A stretch of DNA of 64,000 bases from a virus. This document shows, piece after piece, positions 15,888 to 34,500 of the stretch (position 1 is its first letter; each line of letters opens with the position of its first letter). The position numbers and the translations under genes were made by a program. The notes under the pieces were generated by a model that searched no databases, was not told the DNA's origin, and saw only the letters and a program-made list of their open reading frames with translations. The stretch covers positions 10,924-74,923 of IMG/VR virus record IMGVR_UViG_3300036772_000425. The stretch is one strand, 5' to 3'.

Positions 15888-17885
15888 GTGCAATTCGACC
15901 TCACCAAGAGCGTCTTCGGAACAGAGATCAGGATCCCAGCTACTGCCGAGGTGATCTTCGTCTCTGACATGTTCATCCAGGATTATGTCGGTGGTGCAGA
16001 GCTGACCACCGAGGCCCTGATCTCAAGCTCACCCTACGAGATCTTCAAGATCAGGTCGAAGGATGTGACCCTGGAACTGCTGCGATCGGCCGCCGATCGC
16101 TTCTGGATCTTTGGGAACTTCGCGGAGCTGAACCCACAACTCCTCCCCAGCATCATCGGGAACATCCGGTACTCTGTCCTTGAGTACGACTACAAGATGT
16201 GCCGGGCACGATCGCCTGAGAAGCATTTTGCGGTGCTCGGTACCCCCTGCGATTGCTCAGCTCAGCAGAGTGGGCAGATGATCAGCACCTTCTACTACGG
16301 ATCCATGGGCATGTGGTGGATGTCGGAGGCGCAGAAACAACGGTACTTCACTGCGTTCCCATCCCTGGCCGAGAAACCCAGCACAGTCCTTTCCAGCGTC
16401 TTCGACCCGACCACGTTGTCCAGGATCGTCCAGCTTCGAGAGGTCCACAGGGATCGGAGCGGTTGGATCGTCCTCGGATCGTCGTCCTGGATCAAGGGAG
16501 CACAGGCGGCTGAGCAGTGGTGCAAGGACACCGGTCGAAAGTACGAAATTGTATGGAACCTGCCTTACGAGCAGCTGCTAGAAAAATTGGCATGCTCTGA
16601 AGGGTTCGTCTACCTCCCGCCCGGGGGCGATACATGTCCGCGGATGGTCATCGAGGCAAAGCTGCTGGGTTGCCAGCTGCACCTGAACGATAACGTTCAA
16701 CATCGCCATGAACCTTGGTTCGCCACTGACGACCTAGGTTCAATTGCGGCCCACCTAGCCGCGGCGCCCGGCGTTTTTTGGGCCGGGATCAAGCGGATGC
16801 TCGAGTACAGGCCTTGCATCTCAGGGTACACCACTACGTACAATTGCGTGCAGCAGGAGTACCCGTTCGTGCAGAGCATCAAATCGATGCTGCAGTTCTG
16901 CGATGAGGTGTGCATCGTCGACGGTGGATCGACGGACGCTACGTTCGACAAGCTCGTTGAGCTTGCGTACGGACCACGCACGCAGGTTTGTGACATCGAG
17001 GATCTGAAGTGCTTGAGTCACCTTGGCTCCCAGTTCGATTTCCCGGATTCCATCAACGGTAGGTCCAAGGATCGGAGGGTGAAGGTGCGGATCATCCGGC
17101 GCGATCGGAACATGCCTGGGTTCGCGGCATTCGATGGCATTCAGAAGGCTGAGGCCCGGGCCCTGTGTACCAAGGAATTCTGCTGGCAGATGGACAGCGA
17201 TGAGGTCGTGCACGAGGACGATGCACCTCGAATCGGTGCCATGTGCCGGGTGATCCCGAACGAGGTGGATATCCTTGCCTTGCCCGTCATCGAGTACTGG
17301 GGCTCAACAGAGAAGATCAGGGTCGATGTCCAGCCCTGGAAGTGGCGCTTGAGCCGCAACCTGCCCCACATTACCCACGGCATTCCGATCGACATGAGAC
17401 GAACGAAACCCGATGGGTCCTCGTACGCGGTTCCCGGCACCGATGGGTGCGACATGATCGATGCGTTCAGCGGTGAACGGTTGCAGTTCGTCAGCTTCTA
17501 CCCCACAGAGGTTGAGGCATGCAGGCAGGCAGCCATGCAAGGGAATTCTCAGGCCCTAGCACAGTACCAGCAATGGTTCAACCAGGTCATCACGGGTCTG
17601 CCCTCCGTCTTCCACTACAGCTGGCTCAACCTGCCCCGCAAGATGCGGTTGTACCGTGACTACTGGCAGAATCACTGGAACTCATTGTGGGACAAGGATG
17701 TCTCTGACACCGCAGAGAACAACATGATGTTCAGCACACCCTGGAGCCAGGTGACAGACGATGACATCTCCCGCAAGACGACTGAACTCATGCAGATCGG
17801 TGGTTGGATCTGGCACCGTCCCTGGCACGGCGAATTCACCCCTTGGTTGACGTGCGTTCGTCAGCAACCCAAGGTGATGCTGTGA
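15888..17885 (+). CDS. Two-domain glycosyltransferase (C-terminal GT2-like domain)
   Basis: 665 aa. C-terminal half CIVDGGSTDATFDKLVEL (GT2 DGGSTD-type motif). GTG start at 15888. First gene of the plus-strand glycan island. Confidence 0.6.
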   Translation: MQFDLTKSVFGTEIRIPATAEVIFVSDMFIQDYVGGAELTTEALISSSPYEIFKIRSKDVTLELLRSAADRFWIFGNFAELNPQLLPSIIGNIRYSVLEYDYKMCRARSPEKHFAVLGTPCDCSAQQSGQMISTFYYGSMGMWWMSEAQKQRYFTAFPSLAEKPSTVLSSVFDPTTLSRIVQLREVHRDRSGWIVLGSSSWIKGAQAAEQWCKDTGRKYEIVWNLPYEQLLEKLACSEGFVYLPPGGDTCPRMVIEAKLLGCQLHLNDNVQHRHEPWFATDDLGSIAAHLAAAPGVFWAGIKRMLEYRPCISGYTTTYNCVQQEYPFVQSIKSMLQFCDEVCIVDGGSTDATFDKLVELAYGPRTQVCDIEDLKCLSHLGSQFDFPDSINGRSKDRRVKVRIIRRDRNMPGFAAFDGIQKAEARALCTKEFCWQMDSDEVVHEDDAPRIGAMCRVIPNEVDILALPVIEYWGSTEKIRVDVQPWKWRLSRNLPHITHGIPIDMRRTKPDGSSYAVPGTDGCDMIDAFSGERLQFVSFYPTEVEACRQAAMQGNSQALAQYQQWFNQVITGLPSVFHYSWLNLPRKMRLYRDYWQNHWNSLWDKDVSDTAENNMMFSTPWSQVTDDDISRKTTELMQIGGWIWHRPWHGEFTPWLTCVRQQPKVML

Positions 17886-17934
17886 CTCAAAACTTTGGAC
17901 CGCAGGGTGGGTACAGTCACCAGCTGAGGACAAA

Positions 17935-18663
17935 ATGAAGCACGTTCACATCAAGGAGAAGCTCCACACGATGGGAGTTCCGCTGGAATCCATCGTGATG
18001 GGGGACTTCGATTTCATCGGAGAGTTCACGGCGAAGCGCGATCGTCATCCCTCCGATCCGAACTACAAGACAGCCGGAGCCTTCTACCGTTCGAACTACG
18101 AACGAGGGATCCTGATCTACAACCTGATCAGGAAACACAACCTCACCTCCATGCTTGAGATCGGTTTTGGTCGAGGTTACGCAACCTTCTGTGCCGCCCG
18201 AGCCTTCTACGACGCCGGAGTGGAAGGTAAGATCGTAACGATCGACCCAGCGCTGGACGAGAAGTACCTGCAAGCGCTTAGCCAGATCTTCCCGAAGGAA
18301 TGGTTCAAGTGCATCCAGTTCGCCAAGGGCACCTCGCAGCAGATCCTACCCACCCTGACGGATTCATTCGACCTGGTCTACATCGATGGTGATCACTCGT
18401 ATGAGGGTACCAAGCACGACTGGGAGCTCACCAAGGAACGTTGGAACCGGTTCATGCTTTTCGACGACTACCACCTGCCGTCGAAGGTCGACAAGGGTAC
18501 CATCCAGTGCAGCCAGCTGATCGATGAGATCGTTGATCCCAGCAAGGAACTGATCATCATGGATCGGAGAATTTTCGTGGACGAACGTCACCTCCCGGAT
18601 GACATGATCGACTACGGGCAGGTTCTGCTGTCCAAACTGGGCGAGGCTCGCGATGACTGGTGA
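17935..18663 (+). CDS. Class I SAM-dependent methyltransferase (TylF/CmcI-like O-methyltransferase family)
   Basis: MLEIGFGRGYATFCAA...GKIVTIDPALD...LVYIDGDHSYEGTKHDWELT, typical of Methyltransf_24-type sugar O-methyltransferases. Confidence 0.65.
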   Translation: MKHVHIKEKLHTMGVPLESIVMGDFDFIGEFTAKRDRHPSDPNYKTAGAFYRSNYERGILIYNLIRKHNLTSMLEIGFGRGYATFCAARAFYDAGVEGKIVTIDPALDEKYLQALSQIFPKEWFKCIQFAKGTSQQILPTLTDSFDLVYIDGDHSYEGTKHDWELTKERWNRFMLFDDYHLPSKVDKGTIQCSQLIDEIVDPSKELIIMDRRIFVDERHLPDDMIDYGQVLLSKLGEARDDW

Positions 18664-19075
18664 CAAGCAATACGACCACGTAAACGCGCCGGCAATCAGG
18701 CATCCAGACGGTCGTGAGTTCTGTGCGCGGCCTCGAGCGCCTTGGTCTTGTTCACGTGAGCCGGGCCATGATGGTCCGTGCGCAGCGAGCAGGGATCAAA
18801 AGGTCTCGGTGGAACCTACGCATGTCGTCATCAAGGAGCACACAGACATCCAACCTGCGTACTACCTGAGCAAGGAGCAGCGCGCCGCGGCGAAGGAATG
18901 GGTTGAGAAACACGACGCAGAACGACACCTCGCGCCGGGCAAGAAGCACCGGTACTCGGGCGCGATCGGTGGTGCTTATACGTGGAACTTCACATCCACC
19001 AGCCTGGGAGTGATTTCCACGTTGGCGTGTTCGTGCGGCGAGAAATTGGACGTCAGTGACTATGAAGACTGGTGA
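18653..19075 (+). CDS. Hypothetical protein
   Basis: 140-aa ORF bridging the methyltransferase and the homing endonuclease. No recognisable motif. Confidence 0.35.
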   Translation: MTGDKQYDHVNAPAIRHPDGREFCARPRAPWSCSREPGHDGPCAASRDQKVSVEPTHVVIKEHTDIQPAYYLSKEQRAAAKEWVEKHDAERHLAPGKKHRYSGAIGGAYTWNFTSTSLGVISTLACSCGEKLDVSDYEDW

Positions 19076-19707
19076 TGTTTTTTGTTTATGAAGACTGGAC
19101 TGTTGAGCCTTTTCCCCGTTGTTTTTACGTGGGAAAGGGCATTCTAAATCGTGTCAAAAATCTTCGACGAAACAAGCATCACATGAACATCGTCAAAGCA
19201 CATGGCATTGATCGAAGAGTTGTATTTGCGTCATCAGTTGAACAACTGACATTCGACGTTGAGGTCAAGCTGATCGCTGAACACAAAACTTTCGTGTACG
19301 ATCTGGATTATGTCTTCGGAGCCAATTACACCCGCGGCGGCGAGGGAACTTCTGGCTTCCGACCTTCACAGTCGACACGTCAGAAAATGAGTCATTCTGC
19401 CAAGACACGTCCATCCATTTCTGATGAGACAAGACAGCGATTGAAAAATCGTCATGTCTCTGTTTGTACTCGAGTTGAACGAAGCAATTGGGCACGAGCC
19501 CGTGCCGCCCGTCAACGACTTGAATGGATTCAAGTGCACGATAAATCCATCACAATGTTGTCTCTTGATGGAGTGATTCTTCGAAATTTCACATCCATCA
19601 AGGATGCCGCTGAACAGACGAATACTAGTAGAACCATGATTTCATTGGTTCTGAATGGACATCGTGCGTCAGCAAAAGGATATGTGTGGCGCTATGTCAG
19701 AACATGA
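19072..19707 (+). CDS. GIY-YIG (Seg-like) homing endonuclease with C-terminal NUMOD/IENR DNA-binding motifs
   Basis: N-terminus FFVYEDW..PRCFYVGKG with GIY...YIG-like spacing. C-terminus SIKDAAEQTNTSRTMISLVLNGHRASAKGYVWRYV (IENR1-like, as in I-TevI/Seg proteins). AT-richer than its neighbours. Paralog of 24776..25333. Confidence 0.7.
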   Translation: MMFFVYEDWTVEPFPRCFYVGKGILNRVKNLRRNKHHMNIVKAHGIDRRVVFASSVEQLTFDVEVKLIAEHKTFVYDLDYVFGANYTRGGEGTSGFRPSQSTRQKMSHSAKTRPSISDETRQRLKNRHVSVCTRVERSNWARARAARQRLEWIQVHDKSITMLSLDGVILRNFTSIKDAAEQTNTSRTMISLVLNGHRASAKGYVWRYVRT

Positions 19708-20518
19708 AAATAAATTCTGCTTCGTCGCACCGATGTTCAATGCATCTGCGACGCTGCCGCAGCTCCTACACTCACTGTACGGTCAATCGTACAGGAACTG
19801 GAAATTGATCCTGATCGATGATGTTTCGGAAATCACCGAGCTCGAGAAGGAAGTCCAGATCTTTGAGAGGTTCGAGCGGGCCCATGGTCTGGAACAGACC
19901 GTGTCGATCATTGAGGAAGAACAGTGGAATGGCGTCCGATCAGGTGAGAAAGCAACCCTGATCATCAACGCCGAAAAGCGGTGGGAGGTCAGCAACGTCC
20001 TGCGTGGTATCTCGATGTGCGCTGACGACGACATCGTCTGCCGGATCGATGCTGACGATTGGTTGACGGACCTGGACGCCCTGATGTACCTGAATTCCGT
20101 GTACCAACAGACCAACGCTGAGGCGCTGTGGACGGCGCACCGGTGGGCCTTCACGGATCGAAACATCAGTGCACCCATGCCTCCGGATGCAGACCCGTAC
20201 AAGCACCCATGGGTCTCCAGCCACCTGAAGACGTTCCGGAAGAGGTTGATCAACGGTGTCCCTGACATCAACTTCAGGGGTGAAGATGGTCAGTACATCC
20301 GACGAGCCGGCGATCAGGCGATCTATTTGCCCGTTTTGCACCGCGCAAAACGTCGTGGGTTCATTCCCAGGGTCTTCTATCACTACACGATCAAGGATGT
20401 GCCTGCGACCTATCAGACTCCCGACGCGCGCTTTCAACGAGACGAGGCTATCTTTCTTCGAGCTCGTGGATACGTTCAAGAGGGAGGGCCGTGGGAGTCT
20501 GAACTTAGATCACGTTGA
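19694..20518 (+). CDS. Glycosyltransferase family 2
   Basis: FCFVAPMFNASATLPQLLHSLYGQSYRNWKLILIDDVSE, a canonical GT2 N-terminus. The start is taken at ATG 19694 (MSEHENK) to avoid overlap with the endonuclease. Confidence 0.75.
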   Translation: MSEHENKFCFVAPMFNASATLPQLLHSLYGQSYRNWKLILIDDVSEITELEKEVQIFERFERAHGLEQTVSIIEEEQWNGVRSGEKATLIINAEKRWEVSNVLRGISMCADDDIVCRIDADDWLTDLDALMYLNSVYQQTNAEALWTAHRWAFTDRNISAPMPPDADPYKHPWVSSHLKTFRKRLINGVPDINFRGEDGQYIRRAGDQAIYLPVLHRAKRRGFIPRVFYHYTIKDVPATYQTPDARFQRDEAIFLRARGYVQEGGPWESELRSR

Positions 20519-20802
20519 TCTCAGTGGATCTCGCGCCGACCGACAAGGCATGTATGAAACGATTCTACCTGCAACGTGACCAGGATGCTTCAGGTGTCTC
20601 AGGCCTCGGCAATGTGGCCGAAGGTATCCAGTTTGACAGCGGTTGGTGCGCGCTGGCGTGGATCACCAGCCACGATCCGGAGGATGAGGTGCACTCGTTC
20701 TACCATGACATCGCCCGGATCGAGGAGATCCATGGGCACCGTGGGATGACCAAGGTCGTCTGGATCGATGATGAATCGTCGAACGTGGTGGTCGCGCGCT
20801 GA
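20515..20802 (+). CDS. Hypothetical protein
   Basis: 95-aa ORF collinear with the island. Confidence 0.35.
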   Translation: MISVDLAPTDKACMKRFYLQRDQDASGVSGLGNVAEGIQFDSGWCALAWITSHDPEDEVHSFYHDIARIEEIHGHRGMTKVVWIDDESSNVVVAR

Positions 20803-20838
20803 GTGAAAAACTGGTCGCTCGCATGGTAGTGTCATGCC

Positions 20839-21177
20839 ATGATTGGTATCTACGGTGCGAGCGATGACCTCGTTGAGATCGAGGGTGATGTTAAGGATGA
20901 GGTTGCACCTGGGAAGGTGATCCAGGTGGGAGACAGCACGAGGGGAGTGCGTGTTGTTTTCAAGTACGCAGTGGGCAAGGGTTCTGGGTCTGTCTGGCGC
21001 GGCTCGATCGAGCAGATCGATGAAGGCGTCCCGATGTTCCCTGTGACGATTTCGGAAGCCGAACCGAGCGGTTACCCCAACCCGACGAGCTACAGCGTGA
21101 AGTTCAACATCGACTGTCCGGTCGGCACTCCAGTCACGGTCAGCGGTCGGCTCATCAACCGGAAGCCCCGTCGTTGA
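20839..21177 (+). CDS. Hypothetical protein
   Basis: 112-aa ORF. Confidence 0.4.
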   Translation: MIGIYGASDDLVEIEGDVKDEVAPGKVIQVGDSTRGVRVVFKYAVGKGSGSVWRGSIEQIDEGVPMFPVTISEAEPSGYPNPTSYSVKFNIDCPVGTPVTVSGRLINRKPRR

Positions 21178-22115
21178 AGGCCTACATCAATCGCAAGGTG
21201 GTGGTGGGCCCTTGGGGCGGTGGCAACCTCTTCACCCGGGCCTACTGGAAACACTGCGAGGAATCTGCGGGTTTCGAGCTGTGCCGCGGATCATCGTTCC
21301 AGATCAGGCCTGATGTGATGTTGCTGGTCGGCCTGGACAACCAGGGACCCGATGAGATCAGCGTCGAACAGGCGATCATGTACAAGATGTACGTGAACCC
21401 CGGATGCAAGCTCGTCCTGCGCGTCAATGAAAACGATCCCAGGAAGGGAACGTCGCACGTCGACGCAGGTCTCCTCAAGCTCTCAGAACATGTGGACGGC
21501 ACTGTCTTCGTGTCCAAATGGATGCAGCAGTACTTCAACGAAAAGGGTTGGGCCTGCAAGAACCAGACGGTCATCATCAACGGCGTTGACAACCAGATCT
21601 TCAAGCCCGGTACGAAGCTCAACAACGGGAAGCTCAACATCGTAGCACACCATTGGAGCGACAACTGGCTCAAGGGCGGTGATGTCTACGAACAGATCGA
21701 TAGGTTCGTGGGTGAGAATCCAGACCGGTTCACCTTCACCTACATCGGTCGTCATAAGTGCGATTTCAAGCACACCAACGTGGTCAAACCCTTGAGCGGG
21801 AAGCTTCTGGGTGAAGAGTTGGGCAAGTACGACGTGTACGTCTCAGCGTCACGGTTCGATCCGGGACCCAACCACGTCCTCGAGGCGCTGGCCTGCGGCC
21901 TGTCTACGTATGTTCATCACGACGGCGGGGGTTGTGTGGAGTTCGCGACCGGCGCGGCCAGCTACCGTGACTGGAACTTCCTCCGTGCCTTGTTGGTGTG
22001 TGAACACGCTGCTGGCCAAGTTCGTGAACCGACGGTGAACACTTTTACGCCTGGAACATGGCAGGAATGCGTCCGTGAGTACAATGCATTCCTGGCATCC
22101 ACATGGCAAACGTGA
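21174..22115 (+). CDS. Glycosyltransferase (GT1/GT4-like C-terminal domain)
   Basis: ...DVYVSASRFDPGPNHVLEALACGLSTYVHHDGGG resembles the GT4 E..G..LEA.A.G motif. TTG/ATG start overlapping the upstream stop. Confidence 0.5.
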   Translation: MKAYINRKVVVGPWGGGNLFTRAYWKHCEESAGFELCRGSSFQIRPDVMLLVGLDNQGPDEISVEQAIMYKMYVNPGCKLVLRVNENDPRKGTSHVDAGLLKLSEHVDGTVFVSKWMQQYFNEKGWACKNQTVIINGVDNQIFKPGTKLNNGKLNIVAHHWSDNWLKGGDVYEQIDRFVGENPDRFTFTYIGRHKCDFKHTNVVKPLSGKLLGEELGKYDVYVSASRFDPGPNHVLEALACGLSTYVHHDGGGCVEFATGAASYRDWNFLRALLVCEHAAGQVREPTVNTFTPGTWQECVREYNAFLASTWQT

Positions 22116-22477
22116 TCAGGTTCTCAGAGCTGCTGACACAGCACGTCAACAGGAAGATCGTAAGGTGCGTCAAGGATCATCCGAATGTTGATCCGGTGCT
22201 GCTGAAGAACATCCGGGACATCATCCAGGATACGGTGTCAGGGATCTTCCAGAAAAGCACACACAAGCTGTCGTACCCGGCGATGGGCTGGCTGGCGAAC
22301 CAGTACTTCAGGTCGATCAAGCTGGATTCGACACCGGTAGACGACATGATCGTCATCAATGATTACAAGATGTCAGACATGACCTTCAACGACGTTCAGC
22401 TGCTGAGGAACCTGTTCGACGACACCCGAATTTCGTCTCAACTCAACGCTGAATTCAAGCGAAGGACTGCATCATGA
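22103..22477 (+). CDS. Hypothetical protein (tandem paralog 1)
   Basis: 124 aa. Shares ...LSYPAMGWLANQYFRSIKLD with the next ORF's MNYLAQQYYDGIRIND. Confidence 0.45.
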   Translation: MANVIRFSELLTQHVNRKIVRCVKDHPNVDPVLLKNIRDIIQDTVSGIFQKSTHKLSYPAMGWLANQYFRSIKLDSTPVDDMIVINDYKMSDMTFNDVQLLRNLFDDTRISSQLNAEFKRRTAS

Positions 22478-22842
22478 AATCACAGGAACTGCAGCAGATC
22501 ATCACCGAGCTTTTGCAGTTGAAGTTGAGGCCGCTCATCTCGGACGAGAAGAGCCTCAACTCCAGCTCGTGCATCGAGATCTACGTCACGATTTTCGAGG
22601 CTCTTACGGAGGTGGTGCAGGAAGCTCACCTACCGATCAGCAACGAGGGTATGAACTACCTCGCACAGCAGTACTACGACGGGATCCGGATCAATGACGT
22701 GCATGAGCTGGACCCAACCATCTTTGACAAGCGTGTCTCCGTCGGTGACATGCCGACCAAGGAGCTTGCCTTGCTCGCTGCGATCCTGAGTGGAACTGAC
22801 TTCATTTTGCCAGTGGTCGAGGAGATCAAAAGGCGTTCGTGA
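22474..22842 (+). CDS. Hypothetical protein (tandem paralog 2)
   Basis: 122 aa. See previous feature. 4-nt start/stop overlap. Confidence 0.45.
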   Translation: MKSQELQQIITELLQLKLRPLISDEKSLNSSSCIEIYVTIFEALTEVVQEAHLPISNEGMNYLAQQYYDGIRINDVHELDPTIFDKRVSVGDMPTKELALLAAILSGTDFILPVVEEIKRRS

Positions 22843-23786
22843 AAATCCATTTCGACAATGTCGCACCGCAAGGCACAGGACCAGGTACATTCGCCCATCG
22901 GTTGGCGGCGCGGCTCTTCGAGATCGGACACGAGGTATCATTCAGCAGGGATGATTCTCCTGTTTCGTTGGTCTTCATCGAACGGTCGGGAGCACCGTTG
23001 GCCGACAAGGTTGTCCAACGTTTGGATGGGTTCTGGTTCAAACCGGGCGAATTCGCCCATAAGAACGTGGGCATCGAGTTCCTTCACAACTATGCACATG
23101 CGGTCGTGTACCAGTCACAGTTCGACAGGAAGATGGCTGAAAAATGGTTCGGTTCAGCCAACGGTCAGCAGGGGCTGACCCGTGTGGTGTGCAACGGTAT
23201 CAAGATCGATCCGATCAAGGAGCTGACGATCCCGGCCCTGATCAACCTCCGTGCACAGTACGATCGGTTGTACGTCTGCAGTGCTAACTGGCATCCGCAG
23301 AAGCGCTTGGGTGCCAACATTCGCTTGTTCAACCAACTTCGCAAGACGGAACCTAACAGCTGCCTCATCATCCTGGGAAACAACCCAGATCACATGGTGG
23401 CCGATCCTCACATCTTCTACACCGGAACCGTCAGACCGGAAGTCTTCAACCAGATCTACTCAGCCGCAGACTGGATGCTGCACCTGGCTTGGGCCGACCA
23501 TTGTCCCAACGTGGTGGTCGAGGCGCTTGTCCAAGGCACACCCGTTGTCTGTGGGGAGGTGGGCGGTACCAAGGAACTAGTTGGACAGTACGGAATCGTG
23601 CTGGAAGAAGCTCCGTACGCTTACGAGCTCACGGACTACGATAGCCCTCCTGATATCGACGTCTCGCAGGTGAAATCGTTGCCGTCTAGGTTGTCCTTGG
23701 ACTACACAGGAGTTGCCGAACGTCTGGACATCAACCTTGTAGCCGAGCAGTACGTCTCATTGTTCGAGAGGTTGATCAGGCGGTAG
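22839..23786 (+). CDS. Glycosyltransferase family 1/4
   Basis: C-terminal EALVQGTPVVCGEVGGTKELVGQYGIVLEE (GT4 motif). Confidence 0.6.
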   Translation: MKIHFDNVAPQGTGPGTFAHRLAARLFEIGHEVSFSRDDSPVSLVFIERSGAPLADKVVQRLDGFWFKPGEFAHKNVGIEFLHNYAHAVVYQSQFDRKMAEKWFGSANGQQGLTRVVCNGIKIDPIKELTIPALINLRAQYDRLYVCSANWHPQKRLGANIRLFNQLRKTEPNSCLIILGNNPDHMVADPHIFYTGTVRPEVFNQIYSAADWMLHLAWADHCPNVVVEALVQGTPVVCGEVGGTKELVGQYGIVLEEAPYAYELTDYDSPPDIDVSQVKSLPSRLSLDYTGVAERLDINLVAEQYVSLFERLIRR

Positions 23787-24779: not shown

Positions 24780-25333
24780 AAAGTTTCGGTTACAAACACT
24801 GGACGCTCGAAGAGATCCCACGGTGTTTCTACGTAGGCAAGGGTGTTGAAGGTCGTGCGCAGTGTGCGATTCGTCGTAGTCGTAAGTGGCAAACAGTAGC
24901 GCGACGTTACGGTTTCCGTGTTGAAGTGTGTTTGGGCCCAGTAAGTGATGCAGAGGCAATTGCATGGGAGATCAACAACATCGCTGCTGAAGACACTTTT
25001 ACCACTTCTTTCACAACAGAAGGTGGCAAAAACATTCGCTGTAACTTCACACGAGGTGGCGACGGCGCTTTGGGTTATCGTCACACCGTTCAACACAAAA
25101 TGCACATTGCTCAAGTTCTTCGAGGAAATCATCACACTCTGGGCAGAAAACGGTCATCATCAGAACGATATGCAATTGCTATCAAGCAACAACTTCTGAC
25201 CAGAGCGGACGTCGAGCAAATTCAATGTTTGGATGAGAATGGCGTACACTACATTGAACTTATGACGCAATTCAACTGCAGTTATCCGGTATTGCGTCGA
25301 GCAATTCGTGGCGTGTATAGAGCACTTCAATGA
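24776..25333 (+). CDS. GIY-YIG-like homing endonuclease (paralog of 19072..19707)
   Basis: FGYKHWTLEEIPRCFYVGKG... is the same N-terminal motif as 19072..19707. AT-richer composition. Confidence 0.6.
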   Translation: MKSFGYKHWTLEEIPRCFYVGKGVEGRAQCAIRRSRKWQTVARRYGFRVEVCLGPVSDAEAIAWEINNIAAEDTFTTSFTTEGGKNIRCNFTRGGDGALGYRHTVQHKMHIAQVLRGNHHTLGRKRSSSERYAIAIKQQLLTRADVEQIQCLDENGVHYIELMTQFNCSYPVLRRAIRGVYRALQ

Positions 25334-27108: not shown

Positions 27109-28125
27109 ATGGGCAAGACATTCCTCATTTTCGGCGGTACCGGCTCCTTGGGTCGACGCCTGATCGACAGGTTGATCCCTGAACATCGGGTGTTCGTCTA
27201 CTCACGGGACGAAGCGAAGCACTGGACCATCCGGAACGAGATGTCAACCCATCCCAACCTAGAGAACCTGCGATTCCTTGTCGGTGACATCAGGGATCCG
27301 GATCGTGTCAGGGACGTCATCAGGCAGTGCATTCCCGATACGATCATCGTCGCCGCGGCGCTGAAGCAGGTCGACACCTGCGAACTGAGCCCGGGAGAGA
27401 GCGTGCTGACGAACCTGATCGGCACCCAGAATGTCATCAAAGCCATCAACGAAACGAACCTGCAGCATCCTACCACGGTGCTGTTCGTCAGCACCGACAA
27501 GGCCTGTTCACCTGTGAACGTATACGGGATGTGCAAGGCAATTTCAGAACGCCTGGTGACAAGCCAGGCGATGAACGGACGTTCGGACGTGCGCTACCTT
27601 GCGGTCCGTTATGGAAACGTTCTTGAATCACGCGGTAGCATCATCCCGCTCTTCAAGTACCAGGCCGAGAAGTTGGACCGGTTGACGATCACCGATCCGA
27701 ACATGACAAGGTTTGTCATGACGCTGGACGATAGCGTCAACCTGATCGAGCACGCCGTGCAGCACGGTCAATCCGGAACAACTTGGATCCCAAAGCTCCC
27801 GGCCATGCGGATTGGGGACCTTGCGCAGATCTTCGCGGAGAGGTTCGGAAAACCGGTGATCACGATCGGCCTGCGCCCAGGTGAGAAGATGCACGAGGAC
27901 CTGATCAACGAATCAGAATCATCGAGGACCACCAAACTGGATGGTTTCTACATGATCTCACCTGCATTTGAGGCCGGTTCTGAACCCAGGTTCACGTACT
28001 CCAGCAACGATACCGTGATGAGCAAGGACGAGCTGTCCGATCACCTGACCAAGCTTGGGATCATCGATAGACCATTGGCTGAATTCAAGGGCTTGTCCAT
28101 CGAAGAGATCATCACAGGATCGTAG
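27109..28125 (+). CDS. PseB/PglF/CapD-like UDP-GlcNAc 4,6-dehydratase (polysaccharide biosynthesis protein)
   Basis: FLIFGGTGSLGRRL...VFVYSRDEAKHW...FLVGDIRDPDRV...IIVAAALKQVDTCE...VSTDKACSPVNVYGMCKAISERLV...RYGNVLESRGSIIPLF...ITDPNMTRF...PGEKMHE aligns along its length with PseB/FlaA1-type dehydratases. Confidence 0.8.
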   Translation: MGKTFLIFGGTGSLGRRLIDRLIPEHRVFVYSRDEAKHWTIRNEMSTHPNLENLRFLVGDIRDPDRVRDVIRQCIPDTIIVAAALKQVDTCELSPGESVLTNLIGTQNVIKAINETNLQHPTTVLFVSTDKACSPVNVYGMCKAISERLVTSQAMNGRSDVRYLAVRYGNVLESRGSIIPLFKYQAEKLDRLTITDPNMTRFVMTLDDSVNLIEHAVQHGQSGTTWIPKLPAMRIGDLAQIFAERFGKPVITIGLRPGEKMHEDLINESESSRTTKLDGFYMISPAFEAGSEPRFTYSSNDTVMSKDELSDHLTKLGIIDRPLAEFKGLSIEEIITGS

Positions 28126-28126: not shown

Positions 28127-29425
28127 ATGAAGGTTGAGAACCTCACGAACGCCTTCGTCAAGGTGACGGGAGCGGTGGGCCATGTGGTCTGCGACCCTTG
28201 GATCACTGATGGAATCTACGATGGTTCCTGGAACATCTGGCCACCATTACGAACCCATGAAAGCGCGCTCTCGGGAGCCCGTGCAGCCATCATCACCCAC
28301 ATCCATCAGGATCACATGGACGTAGAGGCGTTGAAGTTGCTGCCGGACAACTCCTTGATCTACGTCCCTGACGTGTATCCAAATCGCCAGGTCATCAGCA
28401 GACGGTTGCCCATGAAGGATCGGGTCAGGTACGTCAACCTTTCTGAGCCCTTCTGCCTCGATGACATGCAAATCGAGTTCGTTCCCCCCATGAACCGGTT
28501 CGGTCACAGGTTGGACCTGTACGATGAACCCCTAGAAACGGCCGCCATCGACTCTGGGATCATCATCTCAAGCATCGATGGGAAGATCGTGCTCCTGGCC
28601 GACAATTTTCCTTACCATCCCAAAAGCGCCGGCGCTTCGTTAGAGAGGATGCTGGCATGTGACGCCCTGTTCTTTCCGTACAACGCATGTGCAGACGATT
28701 ACCCGGTCTGTTTTGACAATTTCTCCTGTGAACTGAAGCGTGAGAAATCACTGGCGCGCAACACAGCTCGCCTGAAACAGATGGGTGAGTTCATCTCCCT
28801 CATCAAGCCCGGGATCACGGTGCCGTACTCATCCGATTTCACCATCTGCGGTGATCGTTATGAGGAATTCATGGCAGTGCACCCGCGCGCCTTTCTCGAC
28901 AAGGTTGAGAATGCAAATCTGGTCAAGGAACTGACGGGAGTTCCGTGCACTGCCCTTTTCGAAGGGGATGAACTGAGGGTTTCCCGAACCTGTGAAATTT
29001 CACGAGGAAATAACCGAAGTGTTGCACCGCCGTCAAGGCACACCAGGCCCAAAGTTGTTCATCCGTCAGTTGGCAGTGAAGCGCTCACCCGCTTGTTCAT
29101 CGCCGCAGCTGAGCACATGTTGTCAAAGATGAAGGTTTGTTCGACTTGGCGGCTGGAACTGCACAGCACTGATAGTGACTTCGCTATGTCAGTGGATCTC
29201 TCGACCGGCATGATCGATCGGTGCGATCCGACCCAACCTGTTCAAAACAACACATTGCGCTGTGGTACCTTGTCATGGTACCTGCATTCACTGTTGAGCT
29301 TCAGGACGCATTGGGACAATGCGATGATCTCGTACAACCTGAGCTGGCAACGCAACCCAGACACGTACGACCTTGGCATCTACCGGGCGCTGAACCACCT
29401 TCACGAACCGATCGGGAAACCATGA
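28127..29425 (+). CDS. Metallo-beta-lactamase-fold hydrolase
   Basis: AAIITHIHQDHMD (H.H.DH motif) after ATG 28127 (MKVENLTNAFVKVTG). Sits between the dehydratase and the aminotransferase. Confidence 0.55.
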   Translation: MKVENLTNAFVKVTGAVGHVVCDPWITDGIYDGSWNIWPPLRTHESALSGARAAIITHIHQDHMDVEALKLLPDNSLIYVPDVYPNRQVISRRLPMKDRVRYVNLSEPFCLDDMQIEFVPPMNRFGHRLDLYDEPLETAAIDSGIIISSIDGKIVLLADNFPYHPKSAGASLERMLACDALFFPYNACADDYPVCFDNFSCELKREKSLARNTARLKQMGEFISLIKPGITVPYSSDFTICGDRYEEFMAVHPRAFLDKVENANLVKELTGVPCTALFEGDELRVSRTCEISRGNNRSVAPPSRHTRPKVVHPSVGSEALTRLFIAAAEHMLSKMKVCSTWRLELHSTDSDFAMSVDLSTGMIDRCDPTQPVQNNTLRCGTLSWYLHSLLSFRTHWDNAMISYNLSWQRNPDTYDLGIYRALNHLHEPIGKP

Positions 29426-30561
29426 AACATCCGCTCTTCAAGGTGCATGTACCCACTGAAGAAACTTTGGTCGGGTTGGAAACGGTCCTTCGCTCTGGCT
29501 TCATCAATGAGGGCGAACAGGTCACCCAACTGACCCATGAGCTGGGTGACTACCTGCGTTCAGACACAATGGTCCTCCTGAATTCGTGTACATCAGCCAT
29601 CACCTTGGCCCTTCGGTTGGCGGGAGTTGGTCCGTACGATGATGTTCTGACAACACCGATGACCTGCATTGCCTCCAACACCCCCATCGCAGCATCGGGT
29701 GCAAGGATCGTCTGGGTAGACATCGATCCGAACACTGGGATGGTCACGCCCCAGACGATCGAAGATGCCATCACACCACAGACGAAGGCGGTGGTAATCG
29801 TGGCTTGGGCCGGCACCCCGCCAAACCTCCGGAGCATCCAACGGTTGTGCAGCCGCCATGGGATCAAATTGATCCTTGATGCTGCTCATGCATTCGGAGC
29901 GTACTTCGGTGGGAAACCGATCCATGATTGGGCAGACTACACCTGTTACAGCTTCCAGGCCATCAAGCACTTCACCACGGGCGACGGCGGCGCCCTGGTG
30001 TGCAGGGATCCGGAAGACCATGAACGTGCCAGGTCATTGAAATGGTTTGGGCTCGATCGGGACCGGGTCAAGGATCGTAATGGTGACTGGAAAGGCCAAC
30101 AGTGGGATGTAGACGTGGTCGAAAGCGGGTACAAGTTCAACATGAACAACCTCGCCGCGGCCATCGGTTTGTCCCAGCTTCCGTACATCGACAGCATCCT
30201 AGATCAACATCGTGCCAATTCTGCCACGTACGATCTGCTTTTCTCCGGGTGTCGAACACTTCGGACCCTGGACAGGCACCCGGAGGCCGACGGTTCAGCA
30301 TGGGTGCACACCATCTTGTTGGACTCTGAGGTTGCGGGGCCCTCACGTGATGAGCTCTTGGTGCTGTTGAATTCCGAGGGAATCGGTGCAGGCATCGTGC
30401 ACGTGCCGAACGATGGTTACACAGCCTTCCGTTCATCCATGAAGGAGCTGCCGGGAACCAGGATCTTTTCGGCCCTTCAGTTCTCGTTGCCGTGCGGGTG
30501 GTGGATGACAGAGGATGACATCTATGACGTGGCAGCCAGGGTCATGGTGCTCTCAAAGTGA
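29423..30561 (+). CDS. DegT/DnrJ/EryC1 (PseC-like) PLP-dependent sugar aminotransferase
   Basis: Start MKHPLFKVHVP at 29423. ...LLNSCTSAITLAL...GIKLILDAAHAFGAYFGGKPIHDWADYTCYSFQAIKHFTTGDGGALV (PLP-lysine context). Confidence 0.8.
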
Positions 30562-31094
30562 AGAATCGTCCGCAGGATGGGTTCATCCTCCGTCCCGTCA
30601 CGGATGATGATCACGAGTACCTTGTCTCACTTCACAATGATCCGATCGTACTTCGGAACATGACACACAACGAACCCATCACCATGGCATCCCACCTGCT
30701 GTGGTGGGACAAGATCAGGAGGGATCGTTCCCAGCTTCGGTTGATCTTTGAGATCCACGGTGATCGTGCCGGGTTCGCAAAGTTCTATGACATCGACGAT
30801 GGGAACAAATGCTGCACCCTGGGTGCTGACATCGATTCTGATCACAGGGGAAATGGGTACGCCAAGCACCTCTGGACACTGATGCTCACCAAGGTATTTG
30901 ATGAGATGCACCTGCATCGAGCGGGGCTCACCACCGCCGCCTACAACGATCATGCCCGATCCATCTACGAAAGGTTGGGATTCTGCGAGGAAGGTCGACT
31001 AGTCGAATCGTTGAAGAGGATGGGCGGCTTCCATGATCAGATCATGATGTTCATGCTGAAGGGGACCTGGGATGGGATGCGATATCGAGATTGA
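30558..31094 (+). CDS. GNAT-family N-acetyltransferase (PseH-like role plausible)
   Basis: 178 aa, GNAT fold signature. Directly follows the dehydratase/aminotransferase, the classic order for making 2,4-diacetamido-2,4,6-trideoxyhexoses. Confidence 0.6.
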   Translation: MKNRPQDGFILRPVTDDDHEYLVSLHNDPIVLRNMTHNEPITMASHLLWWDKIRRDRSQLRLIFEIHGDRAGFAKFYDIDDGNKCCTLGADIDSDHRGNGYAKHLWTLMLTKVFDEMHLHRAGLTTAAYNDHARSIYERLGFCEEGRLVESLKRMGGFHDQIMMFMLKGTWDGMRYRD

Positions 31095-31800
31095 ACCTCG
31101 AATTTTTGTGGGCACGATGCATTCCGGAGAGGGTGACTTCCAAGAATGCATCGACATGATCAGGAAGCAAAAGTCGGTCTGCATCACCCACATCCTGATC
31201 AGTGGTCTACCGGAAAAAGAGGCTCACAACGCCCTGTGGCATGCATGGAGGACCCACAAAAATGAACACGATCTTTTCGTGAAGGTGGATGCTGACACCA
31301 TCCTGATCGACGAGGGTGTCTTGGCCCGGATCTGGAGGTTGTACGCAACGAACCCAAGGTTGACGGGGGTACAGGCTCCCCTCTACGACCACATGACTGA
31401 CGGTCCGATCAACGGTCTCAATTCGTTCCATCCACGCGTGGTCTTCAACGACACCCAGGATGACCTGTACTGCGATCGCCGGGTTGACACCAACCATGAC
31501 ATCGTCATGCGGGATGAGACGTTGCCTGCAGATCTTCGACCCGCTGGTCTGCATTGCACCCTGGCAAACGATCGACAGGCATTCCATTACGGATTGCACC
31601 GGGCCCTGAAGAACCAAGCGCACATCATCGCACGGGTGCATGCTGCGTATGAACGGCAGCGGGATAGGATCCGTAGGTTCGTGTTGCTGGGTGCCGCCGC
31701 GGCGCACAACTTTGAATCGGGTAGGAAATTCAACTACCAGGATCCGGAATTCGAATCGGCCTTTGCTCTAGCCTCTCAGGAGTTCCTCCTTGATCATTGA
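31072..31800 (+). CDS. Hypothetical protein, possible GT2-like glycosyltransferase
   Basis: ...LFVKVDADTILIDEGVL (DxD-like). The start is uncertain: it overlaps the GNAT end, and an internal M at ~31117 is possible. Confidence 0.35.
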   Translation: MGCDIEIEPRIFVGTMHSGEGDFQECIDMIRKQKSVCITHILISGLPEKEAHNALWHAWRTHKNEHDLFVKVDADTILIDEGVLARIWRLYATNPRLTGVQAPLYDHMTDGPINGLNSFHPRVVFNDTQDDLYCDRRVDTNHDIVMRDETLPADLRPAGLHCTLANDRQAFHYGLHRALKNQAHIIARVHAAYERQRDRIRRFVLLGAAAAHNFESGRKFNYQDPEFESAFALASQEFLLDH

Positions 31801-32701
31801 TCTGGTTGATGACATCGGATACACCCGCAGCAACTGCTTCGCACATCAGCTCTACGATCGCATGCAGAAACTACCGGACGTCAGCACCTTGGGCCTGGAG
31901 AGCGCTCTACGATCCGATAGACCGACAGCCGTGATCTGTCGGTTGAAGCAACGAACGTTGCACAGCAACATGGAGCGCATTTCAGGTTGGCTCGGTGAAC
32001 AACCGATCGTGGTCTTCGACCAGGACCCATGGCATGCGTACATGGATGATTCTCCGTACAAGGGCGTCTACCACCGTGCCGCAGGGTCCATGAACCTGCG
32101 CGGGGTTGCAGTCACCAGCCGAGCATGGGCCGACAGGATCACGAAGGATGGGTTGCCCGGCATGTTCACGAGCATGTGGATCCTACCCGATTACTGTGAA
32201 TCAGGGTTGGATTACGCAACCCGGTCAGTCAACGTGGGATTCGTTGGAACGTTGCATCCGCATCGTCGTCGTTTGTTCGATGCGTTGGACGACATGCACG
32301 TCCAGGTCAATGTCCAGGGTGGCAACAACCTACCGTACGATGGGTACCTCCGGGCCCTCGACAACATCAGGATCTTCATCCACAGTGAGGATTCTCCGAT
32401 CACGGTGAACGGATCCTTGGACAACCTGAAGGATGCCCTGTGGATCAAGGATGTGGAGGCTGCGGCCCGAGGTTGTTTCACCATCAGGAACTCGGGCGCA
32501 GGCGCCGGTTCCTACTACGATGGGGTTGAAACAACCCGACTTTACGATTCTGTCGATGAGATCCCAGCAATCATCGATGCCATCGAGAGAATGGAGCCCG
32601 TCGAGAGGCAGGCCTCAATTCACAGGAGCGTGGAATTCATTCGTGTGTCAGACAGATGGCGGCAAACGGCCAACCGGTTGCTTGAAACAGTGACCACCTG
32701 A
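31790..32701 (+). CDS. Hypothetical protein (possible CgeB-like glycosyltransferase)
   Basis: 303-aa ORF collinear with the island. No firm motif. Confidence 0.35.
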   Translation: MIIDLVDDIGYTRSNCFAHQLYDRMQKLPDVSTLGLESALRSDRPTAVICRLKQRTLHSNMERISGWLGEQPIVVFDQDPWHAYMDDSPYKGVYHRAAGSMNLRGVAVTSRAWADRITKDGLPGMFTSMWILPDYCESGLDYATRSVNVGFVGTLHPHRRRLFDALDDMHVQVNVQGGNNLPYDGYLRALDNIRIFIHSEDSPITVNGSLDNLKDALWIKDVEAAARGCFTIRNSGAGAGSYYDGVETTRLYDSVDEIPAIIDAIERMEPVERQASIHRSVEFIRVSDRWRQTANRLLETVTT

Positions 32702-32761: not shown

Positions 32762-33505
32762 ATGTTTCGTGATTGTCCAGCCTGCGGTTCGGAAATTCAG
32801 TATCGTTCTGTTCGGAGTTATCGAACAGCATGCAAACGAATGACATTGTGCGTGTCATGTCGAGCAAAATCTCGACGTTCTAAACTTGGTGAGTGCTCGA
32901 AGCTGACGCGACAAAGAATGTCGCTATCGCATCAAGGTGAGAGAAATCACTTTTTTGGTAAGCGGCACACTGCTGAAACACGTAAAAAGATCGGACAATC
33001 AACCCTGGCTCGTGATCAGTCGGGAGAGAGAAATCCGTTTTACGGTCACACTCACTCAATTGAAACACGCAGCAAAATGTCGAGCACTCGTGCTTCGGGC
33101 ATAGCTCTTGGAGAAATCACCAATGACAACCGTTATGGGCGAAAATCATGGTATCGATCTGCCAAGACGGGCGTTTGTGAACGGTGTGATTCGATTCTCG
33201 AAAAATTTCGAATGTCACAATTGGACGAAGATGCTTCTGTGCTGACTTGGACCAAGAAACATGGAATCAAAATTCCATACGTTTTTGACGGTTCAGTCAG
33301 ACACTACGTTCCAGATTTCCTCATCACTTTAGCTACAGGTGAGATGATTTTGGAGGAAGTGAAGGGTTACGATGTCAAAGCTGCTGAGAAACAACGCGCA
33401 CTTCAAGAATTTTGTGCTGAACATGGCATGTCAGCACGATGGACATCACAATCCACCCTCGAAATTCAAGGTTATCTGAAGTTCAAACAAGGAGAAAACA
33501 AGTGA
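32762..33505 (+). CDS. Homing-endonuclease-like protein with zinc ribbon, NUMOD3 repeats and a C-terminal PD-(D/E)XK motif
   Basis: CPACGSE...CVSCRAK. NUMOD3-like SLSHQGERNHFFGKRHTAETRKKIG and GERNPFYGHTHSIETRSKMS. C-terminus HYVPDFLITLATGEMILEEVKGY (PD...E.K). AT-richer than surroundings. Confidence 0.55.
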   Translation: MFRDCPACGSEIQYRSVRSYRTACKRMTLCVSCRAKSRRSKLGECSKLTRQRMSLSHQGERNHFFGKRHTAETRKKIGQSTLARDQSGERNPFYGHTHSIETRSKMSSTRASGIALGEITNDNRYGRKSWYRSAKTGVCERCDSILEKFRMSQLDEDASVLTWTKKHGIKIPYVFDGSVRHYVPDFLITLATGEMILEEVKGYDVKAAEKQRALQEFCAEHGMSARWTSQSTLEIQGYLKFKQGENK

Positions 33506-34500
33506 AATCTGTGGCAGTGATTGGTCAAGGTTTTGTGGGCGGATCGTTGACGACCGTCTTCTCTGAACGGGGATACGAGGTCTACGTCTACGACAAAGCA
33601 GGTAAGGTGGCTCAGGGTGGCCGCGACATCCTCGGCTTGAGCCTTATCGGTGATCGGAAACGAGCCTTAGAACTGGCAGGAGTGACCGCAGTTCAAGAAC
33701 CAAAGGAAGGCACCCAAACCCAGAATTTCGTCAAGGCATGTCACGAGATGAAGTCATTCTCGGGTGTCTTCTTTGTGTGTCTTCCGACCCCCATGTACGA
33801 AGACGGATCGGCTGACATCAGCATCGTGGATCGGGTCCTGCATGAGATCGCATCAGTTCCGGGTGAGAGGGTTGCGGTCATCAAGTCCACCGTCCCACCC
33901 GGCAGCACCGAAAACTGGAATCGGACCTTCGAGGGCACAGGGCTCCGGGTGATCTTCAACCCTGAATTCCTGACCGAGGCGAACGCCCTCGACGACATGC
34001 GTAACCAGAACAGGATCGTCCTGGGTGGACCTCGTCCTTGGATCAACCAGGTCAAGTACGTCTTCCAGAACGCCTTCCCGAAGGTGCCCATCATCAAGAC
34101 CTCCTCCACCACGGCGGAGATGGTGAAGTACGTGACCAACATCCATCTCGCTGTCAAGGTCCTTCTGGCCAACGAGTTCTGGCAGGTGTGCACTGCGCTG
34201 GACAAACAGGGTAAGAACATTGACTACGACAAGGTCATCGAGTACGCAAAGCTCGATGACAGGCTGGGCAAGACGCACTGGCAGGTACCGGGTCCCATGC
34301 CTGCAGACGATACGGGCGAACCTGCCTTCGGAGTGGGAGGCAGCTGCTTCGTCAAGGACCTGAACGCACTGATCGTGGTGTCACGGCAGTTGGGTGTCGA
34401 TCCGAAGTTGATGATCGCCGCCTGGCAGAAGAACCTAGAAGTGCGACCCCAGCGTGACTGGGAAAAGCTGGCGGGCCGCGCGGTGAGCAAGGAATCATGA
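33503..34500 (+). CDS. UDP-glucose/GDP-mannose 6-dehydrogenase-family nucleotide-sugar dehydrogenase
   Basis: GTG start after the AAGGAG RBS (33488-33493). AVIGQGFVGGSL Rossmann motif, catalytic-Cys context GGSCFVKDLNALIVV. Confidence 0.7.

Follow-up and report, generated by a model that had tools for sequence, protein, structure and literature searches.

Positions 15888–34500 of a 64,000-nucleotide stretch of viral DNA (IMG/VR record IMGVR_UViG_3300036772_000425, positions 10,924 to 74,923; hereafter the window) hold an uninterrupted run of plus-strand open reading frames (ORFs), mostly abutting or overlapping by a few bases. A first-pass annotation, made from the sequence, had described this run as a glycan and nucleotide-sugar biosynthesis island. 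We assigned the genes with Pfam and NCBIfam profile scans of the window ORFs, AlphaFold models for two proteins and profile-profile comparisons with hhalign. Almost every gene call in this run, and in a further glycosyltransferase (GT) pair at 41982–44395, was backed by these analyses, and the profile searches supported the proposed overall capacity, namely nucleotide-sugar synthesis, many GTs and a methyltransferase. Rather than a variable acquired island, the region proved to be a core module that is kept collinear across a large uncultured jumbo-phage clade. Publicly available gene calls for the source contig (Logan SRR11832861, 69.4 kb) show the same ORF layout. All genes of the run lie on the plus strand, as do the GT pair and the NAD salvage and tRNA genes described below.

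The run opens with the hallmark gene of the clade, GT665 (15888–17885), which encodes a two-domain GT of 665 aa. An AlphaFold2 model built from 33 homologues (pLDDT 87) has an N-terminal Rossmann-type, GT-B-like domain and a C-terminal GT-A/GT2 domain. Because of these domains and the matches to solved and viral folds, the earlier reading of this gene as a GT1+GT2 fusion is right. The N-terminal domain carries the GT-B signature 'E...PRMVIEA', an EX7E-like motif, and gave a weak hhalign match to a GT4. The window protein scored 22 bits against the Pfam GT2 family, for which the cut-off is 23.3, and most of its relatives carry PF00535. The best PDB matches of the model were SunS/ThuS, followed by chondroitin polymerase (K4CP), TarS and RmlT, while its viral fold matches (BFVD) included multidomain GTs of mimivirids and uncultured phages.

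GT665 is followed by an S-adenosylmethionine (SAM)-dependent (O-)methyltransferase (17935–18663; Methyltransf_24 57.4 bits, Methyltransf_3 29.9 bits). This gene had been called a TylF-like O-methyltransferase; the SAM/O-methyltransferase assignment and the TylF/CmcI-like class held, but TylF specifically did not. A GT2 (19655–20518; PF00535 41 bits) and two GT1/4-type genes had also been proposed, and all three were confirmed. The second of the latter two is a GT4 (22839–23786; Glyco_trans_1_4 45.6 bits), and the first, a GT-B (GT4-like) enzyme (21174–22115) that is weak in Pfam, is its full-length paralogue (hhalign 97.7%, 271 columns). Between these paralogous GTs lie tandem genes for small proteins of 124 and 122 aa (g124 and g122; 22103–22842), which are also paralogues of each other (hhalign 98.9%) and had no Pfam or PDB-profile match. 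The gene at 25330–26265, previously listed as a GT1, matches a GT4 family at the borderline (26.7 bits against a cut-off of 27).

Two candidate GT-A proteins and one further GT complete the GT calls within the run. The GT2 proposed at 26262–27104 could not be confirmed. This 280-aa protein has DNAS and ESD motifs, but neither a Pfam match nor a match of its family profile among PDB sequences; its hhalign signals were weak, and PF00535 is annotated on one of the 120 members listed from a family of 302. Its gene always adjoins the PseB-like gene described below. Of two additional GTs suggested near the end of the run, the one at 31790–32701 was supported as a GT-B-like enzyme (Glyco_trans_1_2 28.8 bits, cut-off 25). 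The other, a 242-aa protein with a DAD motif (31072–31800), is the weaker candidate. It likewise had no Pfam match and its family profile found nothing among PDB sequences, leaving a partial hhalign signal to the GT2 family of the same region (GT2_287; 68%, E 4.7e-5).

The two distal GT4 genes were both upheld. GT4_455 (41982–43232; Glycos_transf_1 51.3 bits) has a longest ORF that begins at 41865, but its relatives align from about residue 38–44 of that ORF, and GT4_412 follows at 43157–44395 (30.3 bits). The two are paralogous in their C-terminal halves (hhalign 93%) and have sub-threshold matches to the 'GT4 in conflict systems' family.

Sugar-nucleotide enzymes

The GDP-mannose 4,6-dehydratase (Gmd; 23796–24779) was the most clear-cut of the sugar-nucleotide calls, matching TIGR01472 over its full length with 429.5 bits, above the equivalog cut-off of 415, and PF16363 with 413.7 bits. 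Since no reductase gene is encoded nearby, either a bifunctional Gmd or a host enzyme would be needed. A bifunctional Gmd is reported to occur in chlorovirus PBCV-1.

Further downstream lie genes for a PseB/FlaA1-like soluble UDP-GlcNAc 4,6-dehydratase (27109–28125; Polysacc_synt_2, PF02719, 262 bits), a DegT/PseC-like sugar aminotransferase (29422–30561; PF01041 288.6 bits) and a PseH-like GNAT N-acetyltransferase (30558–31094; Acetyltransf_3 59 bits). These three had been called PseB-, PseC- and PseH-like, and the corresponding families were indeed their best matches, but all scores fell below the equivalog cut-offs: TIGR03589 at 281.5 bits against 407.75, with FnlA next at 196.7; TIGR03588 at 229.1 against 423.5, with an ArnB-type family next at 206.4; and TIGR03585 at 59 against 93.1. 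As in the pseudaminic acid pathway (PseB-PseC-PseH-PseG-PseI-PseF), the genes best matched to the first three steps are adjacent and conserved together. Unlike in that pathway, PseG, PseI (NeuB) and PseF (CTP_transf_3) had no Pfam or NCBIfam match among the ORFs of the window (64 of ~340 kb), and in syntenic relatives no gene of these types was inserted between the GNAT and UGDH-like genes. The proposed bacillosamine or Pse-precursor route therefore stands as a resemblance only. Because the last three enzymes are missing, the UDP-sugar made by the trio is probably used directly as a donor. One related phage (L005, 5650–7159) has genes for an ATP-grasp enzyme and a HAD phosphatase inserted behind its 242-aa gene, a lineage-specific decoration of the Pse-like sub-module.

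The first-pass annotation had remarked that a hydrolase with the metallo-β-lactamase (MBL) fold, encoded between the PseB- and PseC-like genes, is no part of the canonical pathway. Both the fold and the remark were borne out. The protein (28127–29425) has an intact HxHxDH motif (HIHQDH) and a confident AlphaFold2 model (pLDDT 89), which matched SaxA, TM MBL, FrsH/CmlA, UlaG and NAPE-PLD with a Foldseek probability of 1.0. The matches of the N-terminal domain thus include hydrolases (SaxA, UlaG, NAPE-PLD) as well as di-iron hydroxylases (CmlA, FrsH). For the C-terminal domain of ~170 residues, the structure comparison of the model gave no match. PF12706 scored 21.6 bits on the window protein, against a cut-off of 27, and is annotated on its relatives.

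Only 22 proteins belong to this rare family at E ≤ 1e-3, and it recurs beside Pse-type genes. The PseB/MBL junction had no exact match in a scan of JGI metagenome contigs, whereas a protein-based scan recovered L194, in which the MBL gene (47% identity) lies between PseB and PseC as in the window. PseC/GNAT-like genes also neighbour it in L005, where it follows the GNAT gene, in L009, where it lies between PseC and GNAT, and in L019 and L029. On a 337-kb contig, it follows two GNATs and adjoins NeuB and a CMP-transferase. A distant full-length homologue occurs in a flagellin-glycosylation-type locus of Lysinibacillus odysseyi (L029), in the order Maf – PseB – x – GNAT – WbqC – MBL – MTase – PseF – PseI – PseC, and Marinacidobacterales chromosomes carry the gene in polysaccharide loci without Pse genes. 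A protein of 626–668 aa encoded beside the bacterial homologues was tested as a relative of GT665 and proved unrelated. The description that suits the MBL-fold protein best is that of an accessory enzyme which tailors Pse-type amino sugars. That it replaces PseG is a possible reading but one that we did not adopt, because the window lacks PseI and PseF and because an additional unannotated 347-aa gene in the Lysinibacillus locus could be PseG.

The last gene of the run (33502–34500) encodes a two-domain UGDH-like dehydrogenase of 332 aa, earlier annotated as a UDP-sugar 6-dehydrogenase. Its NAD-binding and central domains were found as expected for that call (PF03721 88.6 bits, PF00984 65.7 bits), but the protein ends just past the central domain. 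It retains the catalytic GGSCFVKD motif, and no C-terminal UDP/GDP-sugar-binding domain (PF03720) was found in it. TIGR03026 matched at profile positions 2–295 of 413 (183.5 bits, cut-off 189.8), and alignment to 444-aa UGDHs covered residues ~22–310 only. The gene stops at the same point in ~40 related contigs. Among 1.84 billion proteins, 264 clusters matched at E < 1e-30, and the best 150 representatives were mostly 265–335 aa long. Of seven longer representatives that were scanned, none had the C-terminal domain, two had an intein/Hint domain near the catalytic Cys and the rest carried extra sequence without a Pfam match. Judged from these sequences, the short form is a conserved and presumably functional variant. 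Since the UDP-binding domain is missing clade-wide, the earlier statement that this dehydrogenase gives a uronic acid is doubtful, and a UDP-sugar should not be taken for granted as its substrate.

The small proteins g124 and g122 were considered as suppliers of the missing C-terminal domain of the UGDH-like protein and rejected; they have no Pfam or PDB-profile support in this role and are paralogues of each other. A 76-aa ORF downstream of the UGDH-like gene is unrelated to it and absent from relatives. The intein/Hint insertions of the longer homologues explain why the UGDH-like gene of L163/L164 (7035–9089) is interrupted by an insertion of ~1.1 kb. With such insertions in representatives P0266 and P0269, and with a NUMOD3 endonuclease gene immediately upstream in the window, the gene is a hotspot for selfish elements.

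A conserved module in a jumbo-phage clade

We placed every protein of the window onto IMG/VR loci around GT665 (26 loci), the first distal GT4 gene (59) and the 242-aa gene (8), on contigs of up to 369 kb. Presence counts refer to the loci that span each gene; as some loci derive from one contig, these counts are not fully independent. GT665 had 2,237 homologues at E ≤ 1e-3 in a set of 5.8 billion proteins, and the 120 of these that were listed align over the full length with 57–65% identity, on contigs of up to 369 kb.

Gene order was uniform. In all mapped loci, the module is preceded by PhoH – helicase – ClpP – g208 – g375 – GroEL-like – g140m. Its first half runs GT665 – MTase – GT2 – (Acb5-like) – GT – g124 – g122 – GT4 – (Gmd) – GT4 – 280-aa, and its second half PseB – PseC – GNAT – 242-aa – GT1_2 – UGDH-like – (NAD salvage, tRNAs) – PDDEXK, where GT1_2 is the Glyco_trans_1_2 gene. 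The distal part continues from PDDEXK with GT4 – GT4 – g106 – sigma – g123 – g498 – baseplate. The order GT4_455 – GT4_412 – 106-aa ORF – sigma – gp25/gp6-like baseplate was kept in all 57–60 loci spanning it.

Presence separates the genes into layers. GT665 was found in 30/30 spanning loci (median identity 56%), GT4_455 and GT4_412 each in 60/60 (69% and 57%) and the UGDH-like gene in 42/50 (62%), so that these core genes occur in fixed order in 84–100% of the loci that span them. The PDDEXK nuclease was present in all 61 of its spanning loci. Next come the GT2 (26/31), each member of the paralogous GT pair (27/36), g124 and g122 (21/37 and 27/37), the borderline GT4 (24/39) and the methyltransferase (19/29, median identity 71%). 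Similar counts were obtained for the PseB-like (21/35, 68%) and PseC-like (21/37, 59%) genes and for the 280-aa (22/37) and 242-aa (21/38) genes, followed by Gmd (19/39), GNAT (16/36) and GT1_2 (15/37). MBL was absent from all 33 spanning loci. In three reduced modules (L173, L176 and L178), GT665 – GT2 – PDDEXK – UGDH – GT4 – GT4 lie directly beside structural genes. The module thus is an invariant core (GT665, the UGDH-like gene and the two GT4s) with a common shell and optional decorations (Pse-like genes, Gmd and MBL). Median identities within the module (54–71%) are as high as for PhoH (66%), helicase (64%) and baseplate wedge (62%) proteins. It is this combination of collinear order with identities equal to those of neighbouring phage genes that replaces the island by a core module.

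Could the region be host capsule or O-antigen DNA that entered a phage contig through mis-assembly? Apart from the bacterial appearance of the enzymes, nothing fits this explanation. The GC content of the window is 52–60% without a break at the sugar region, and relative synonymous codon usage in the sugar region correlates with that of the rest of the window (r = 0.96), the only deviating genes being the three endonucleases described below. These are phage homing endonucleases inside the region, genuine phage genes lie on both flanks, and the same gene order occurs on more than 80 viral contigs. Moreover, a 340,433-bp JGI contig encodes a protein identical to the 280-aa ORF product and a GT665 identical at 664 of 665 residues, differing at the start residue; this contig represents the same phage, assembled independently. 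We rule out mis-assembly and class the virus as a jumbo phage. The check for a GC discontinuity or mis-assembly thus failed to refute phage origin, and we give the artefact a negligible probability. The clade is without a deposited relative: among 50,697 deposited phage genomes, there was no megablast match of the sugar region and no tblastn match of GT665 or g498, and the helicase has only ~30–31% identity to those of other jumbo phages.

Mobile genes and flanking features

Homing endonucleases had been noted in the region, and their presence was confirmed, but their number is three, as the 185-aa gene at 24776–25333 was missing from the earlier list. This gene is a paralogue of the one at 19072–19707 (blastp 7e-17), which encodes an I-HmuI NUMOD-like DNA-binding tail (PF22083 27.6 bits). 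The third (32762–33505) combines two NUMOD3 motifs (66.5 bits) with a TnsA-like nuclease domain. At their sites in relatives, the three were found in 0/29 (19072–19707), 0/39 (24776–25333) and 3/37 (32762–33505) loci. Their GC content at third codon positions (GC3) is 0.38–0.40 (0.40 for both paralogues and 0.38 for the third), while that of all other genes is 0.59–0.78, with ~0.7 for the neighbours of 19072–19707. Because of the paralogy and of a GC3 near 0.39 in these genes only, all three appear to be mobile homing-endonuclease-like genes.

Three small ORFs also lie among the sugar genes. A 140-aa protein without a Pfam match (18653–19075) occurs in 9/30 relatives, and a 112-aa protein of unknown function (20839–21177) is rare, being present in 2/33. 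The 82-aa Acb5-like ORF (20554–20802), recognised through a precomputed Pfam match to PF26761, is a passenger rather than a sugar gene, with ~66% identity in the 14/33 relatives that have it. Acb5 is a family name that reportedly occurs in a preprint of 2025, the subject of which is the cleavage or sequestration of immune nucleotide signals by viral proteins.

On the 5' side, the module is flanked by genes for PhoH, a helicase, ClpP and a GroEL-like protein. The ClpP protease (136 bits) and the GroEL-like protein (11237–15347) are kept upstream of the module in most relatives. On the 3' side of position 34500 follow NMNAT-Nudix and NAMPT genes, two tRNA genes, the PD-(D/E)XK nuclease and the GT4 pair, and then the 106-aa ORF (44392–44712), a gp55-like late sigma factor, gp25-/gp6-like baseplate wedge genes and very large structural ORFs. 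The NAD salvage pair NMNAT-Nudix/NAMPT (34766–37500) is an optional insert, found in 13–17 of ~50 relatives.

The two tRNA genes, in tandem at 40294–40367 and 40372–40446, scored 51.7 and 51.5 bits in Rfam and were left unnamed by ARAGORN. RNAfold gave both an 8-nt anticodon loop, ACUUCAAA and ACUUCAAG, with a CU-UCA-A core. The same odd tRNAs occur at the syntenic position in L126, L128, L131, L133, L136, L137, L144, L186, L190 and L191, where they were called 'ttca', 'tc' or Glu(ttc), and L005 has two tRNA-Stop(tta) at 14576–14912. TGA is the stop codon of 50 of the 58 called window genes, and a UGA- or quadruplet-reading tRNA would be remarkable.

Two other parts of the window stood out. 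Four consecutive large ORFs on the minus strand (1097–6941; 482, 473, 574 and 464 aa) had no Pfam or PHROG match. The 464-aa protein is ~60% conserved in relatives, and the 473-aa protein is an apparent paralogue of it, both matching the same region in L101, L124 and L125. At 61379–63563, 2.2 kb contain only ORFs of 53–65 aa, on both strands, and had no Rfam or tRNA match.

Expression, acceptor and relation to known systems

A sigma70-like promoter, TGAACA-N16-TACGAT (15854–15881), is separated by 6 nt from the start codon of GT665 and is the sole match to this pattern in the window (expected 0.1). It recurs in several relatives with a spacing of 6–9 nt to the GT665 start (among them L100, L102, L104, L107, L112, L116 and L125) or, in L101, of 15 nt. 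Across L100–L125, the spacer is 16–17 nt, the -10 element is TAnnAT and no Shine-Dalgarno sequence precedes GT665. This is the geometry of a leaderless mRNA, which may bear on the host. The sequence upstream of Gmd (TAGAAT, 6 nt, ATG) has a similar look.

Convincing membrane segments are missing from the proteins of the module. In a Kyte-Doolittle scan of 15888–44395, no protein had more than one hydrophobic segment, and the single segment above threshold, at the C-terminus of the 122-aa ORF, was marginal (1.79 against 1.6). Among the scanned ORFs of the window, no Pfam family of an initiating phosphoglycosyl transferase, flippase, polymerase or exporter was matched.

From family membership, the following route can be sketched. 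Gmd would make GDP-4-keto-6-deoxymannose, the reduction of which would fall to a host reductase or to Gmd itself if it is bifunctional, and the PseB-, PseC- and PseH-like enzymes would make a UDP-2,4-diacetamido-2,4,6-trideoxyhexose, which in this phage the MBL-fold enzyme may tailor further. The short UGDH-like enzyme would carry out an oxidation. From these sugars, some ten soluble GTs and the methyltransferase would build up a methylated heteroglycan within the cytoplasm, and its acceptor would be a phage-made molecule, most probably virion proteins.

We tentatively favour, at somewhat less than an even chance, a phage-encoded machinery that works in the cytoplasm on a product of the phage, probably virion proteins, as its glycosylation target, and that is vertically inherited in an uncultured clade of jumbo myoviruses. 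Three features lead us to such an acceptor: the genes belong to the vertically inherited core, they form a self-contained cytoplasmic set, and they border on the block of late sigma factor and baseplate genes. The fold match of GT665 to SunS and ThuS, which are peptide S/O-glycosyltransferases, hints weakly that the acceptor is a protein. Several points weigh against it. The only recognisable promoter, at the head of the module, is sigma70-like, which suggests early or middle rather than late expression. The SunS/ThuS match has a TM-score of about 0.4, and wall-teichoic-acid and polysaccharide GT-A enzymes come close behind. O-antigen and capsule GTs are also soluble or peripheral, so that the lack of membrane proteins does not imply that host undecaprenyl-phosphate, flippase and export are unused. 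Finally, the acceptor is one that we infer, and the window covers 64 kb of a ~340-kb genome.

The first-pass annotation had named two roles for such genes, remodelling of host surface polysaccharide and glycosylation of virion proteins, and the strongest rival follows the former: phage sugars and GTs would feed host lipid-linked assembly of O-antigen, capsule or S-layer glycans, so as to mask receptors or exclude superinfecting phages. In gene content, the module is similar to the 'capsular polysaccharide modification systems' of jumbo phages and cyanophages (PMC7824862, section 3.4.10), the promoter at the module head fits early expression, and the variable shell (Gmd, GNAT and the rare MBL) resembles serotype-style diversification. 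The MBL family also occurs in bacterial polysaccharide and flagellin-glycan loci. However, no initiating phosphoglycosyl transferase, flippase, polymerase, ligase, ABC exporter or polytopic membrane protein is found in the module, its core GTs are universal and collinear over many metagenomes whereas cyanophage clusters are described as sporadic and polymorphic, and it adjoins the late sigma factor and baseplate genes. With no membrane, initiating or export component encoded, and with conservation in place of polymorphism, host-surface remodelling is weakened and we consider it unlikely, if still a serious contender.

Other acceptors are less probable still. A different product of the cytoplasm, be it a glycolipid, a small molecule carrying sugars or, during takeover, host proteins such as flagellin or pilin, would agree with the solubility of all enzymes and with the occurrence of the Pse-like trio and MBL relatives in flagellin-glycosylation islands, as in Lysinibacillus (L029) with Maf. 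Yet the window yielded no gene for a flagellin transferase of the Maf/FlmG type, for polyketide synthesis or for a lipid carrier, and nothing specific speaks for such a product, which makes it improbable. DNA hypermodification, in which the transferases would place sugars on modified phage bases as protection from restriction, has a precedent in phage GTs related to LPS and teichoic-acid enzymes that build mono- to trisaccharides on 5-hydroxymethylcytosine (bioRxiv 10.1101/2023.12.21.572611). The universal GT4 pair, with its 'conflict systems' matches, adjoins the universal PD-(D/E)XK nuclease, and a sigma70-like promoter would fit expression during replication. Nevertheless, no cytosine methyltransferase, TET/5mYOX or pyrimidine hydroxymethylase was found by Pfam in the scanned window ORFs, several large ones of which are unannotated. 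Some ten GTs, an O-methyltransferase and a diacetamido-trideoxyhexose pathway also go far beyond any known DNA glycan, and we regard DNA as a very improbable acceptor.

Sugar gene clusters of phages are a kind already known, from cyanophage lipopolysaccharide (LPS) clusters, mycobacteriophage virions and giant viruses, and core GT orthogroups are known from Moraphages. The LPS/capsule clusters of cyanomyoviruses of the P-SSM2 type are described as sporadic and polymorphic between related phages, and a role at the envelope has been proposed for them (PMC7824862, Iyer et al. 2021). In these clusters and in the present module, a T4-like or jumbo myovirus has large runs of paralogous GTs alongside O-methyltransferases and NAD-dependent sugar dehydratases/epimerases, and for both the target is proposed from the genes. 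Unlike these clusters, the core described here is universal, collinear and located beside late sigma and baseplate genes, and it is accompanied by a Pse-like module and a truncated UGDH.

Giant viruses offer a second parallel, with the capsid glycans of chloroviruses and the virion fibrils of Megavirinae, for which clade-specific glycosylation gene clusters are described (PMC10117803, PMC9614988). As in these viruses, nucleotide-sugar pathways are encoded by the virus itself (6-deoxyhexoses through Gmd, and 2,4-diamino-trideoxyhexoses such as bacillosamine), multi-domain soluble GTs occur with methyltransferases, and clade-specific gene sets surround a conserved function. In contrast, the virus studied here infects bacteria, the homology found goes no further than folds and families, and the glycan and its acceptor are predicted from genes. 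Virion glycosylation in mycobacteriophages (Freeman et al. 2023), as cited in PMC12619734, likewise involves phage GTs encoded beside structural genes, which modify phage proteins in the cytoplasm. Those phages have one to three GTs and use host nucleotide sugars, whereas some ten GTs and dedicated sugar-nucleotide pathways are found here. The 'Moraphages', aquatic jumbo myoviruses with predicted Bacteroidota hosts, have four GT orthogroups in their core genome (PMC12619734). They have PhoH, a UvsW-type helicase, Clp, a sigma factor and gp6/gp25 baseplate genes in common with the present clade (56% GC), a comparison made by description, and sugar-nucleotide genes are not described for them in PMC12619734.

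What sets the present module apart is the size of the gene set, its clade-wide conservation and its core-plus-decoration architecture, as well as a Pse-like donor module without the nonulosonate steps, a UGDH without its sugar-binding domain and a recurrent MBL partner. The last two pose enzyme puzzles: a domain-less dehydrogenase and a Pse-associated MBL protein. With more than 2,200 metagenome homologues, GT665 can serve as a marker gene for tracking the clade. It is possible, though a more doubtful proposition than a phage-made acceptor as such, that an abundant uncultured clade vertically inherits the means to place a glycan on its virion in the manner of giant viruses. This glycan would have a conserved core and lineage-specific decorations (6-deoxyhexose, diacetamido-trideoxyhexose and O-methyl groups), and would be made with a UGDH that lacks the nucleotide-sugar-binding domain and a Pse-linked MBL protein, both without characterised counterparts. 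The usual reading of sugar clusters in phages is that of accessory islands, variable and directed at the surface of the host; here the cluster belongs to the conserved backbone of a widespread jumbo-phage lineage. If the virion is indeed the target, tailed phages would join chloroviruses and mimiviruses in the autonomous making of complex glycans, which would bear on receptor recognition, particle stability, evasion of immunity and defence, and the detection and use of such phages.

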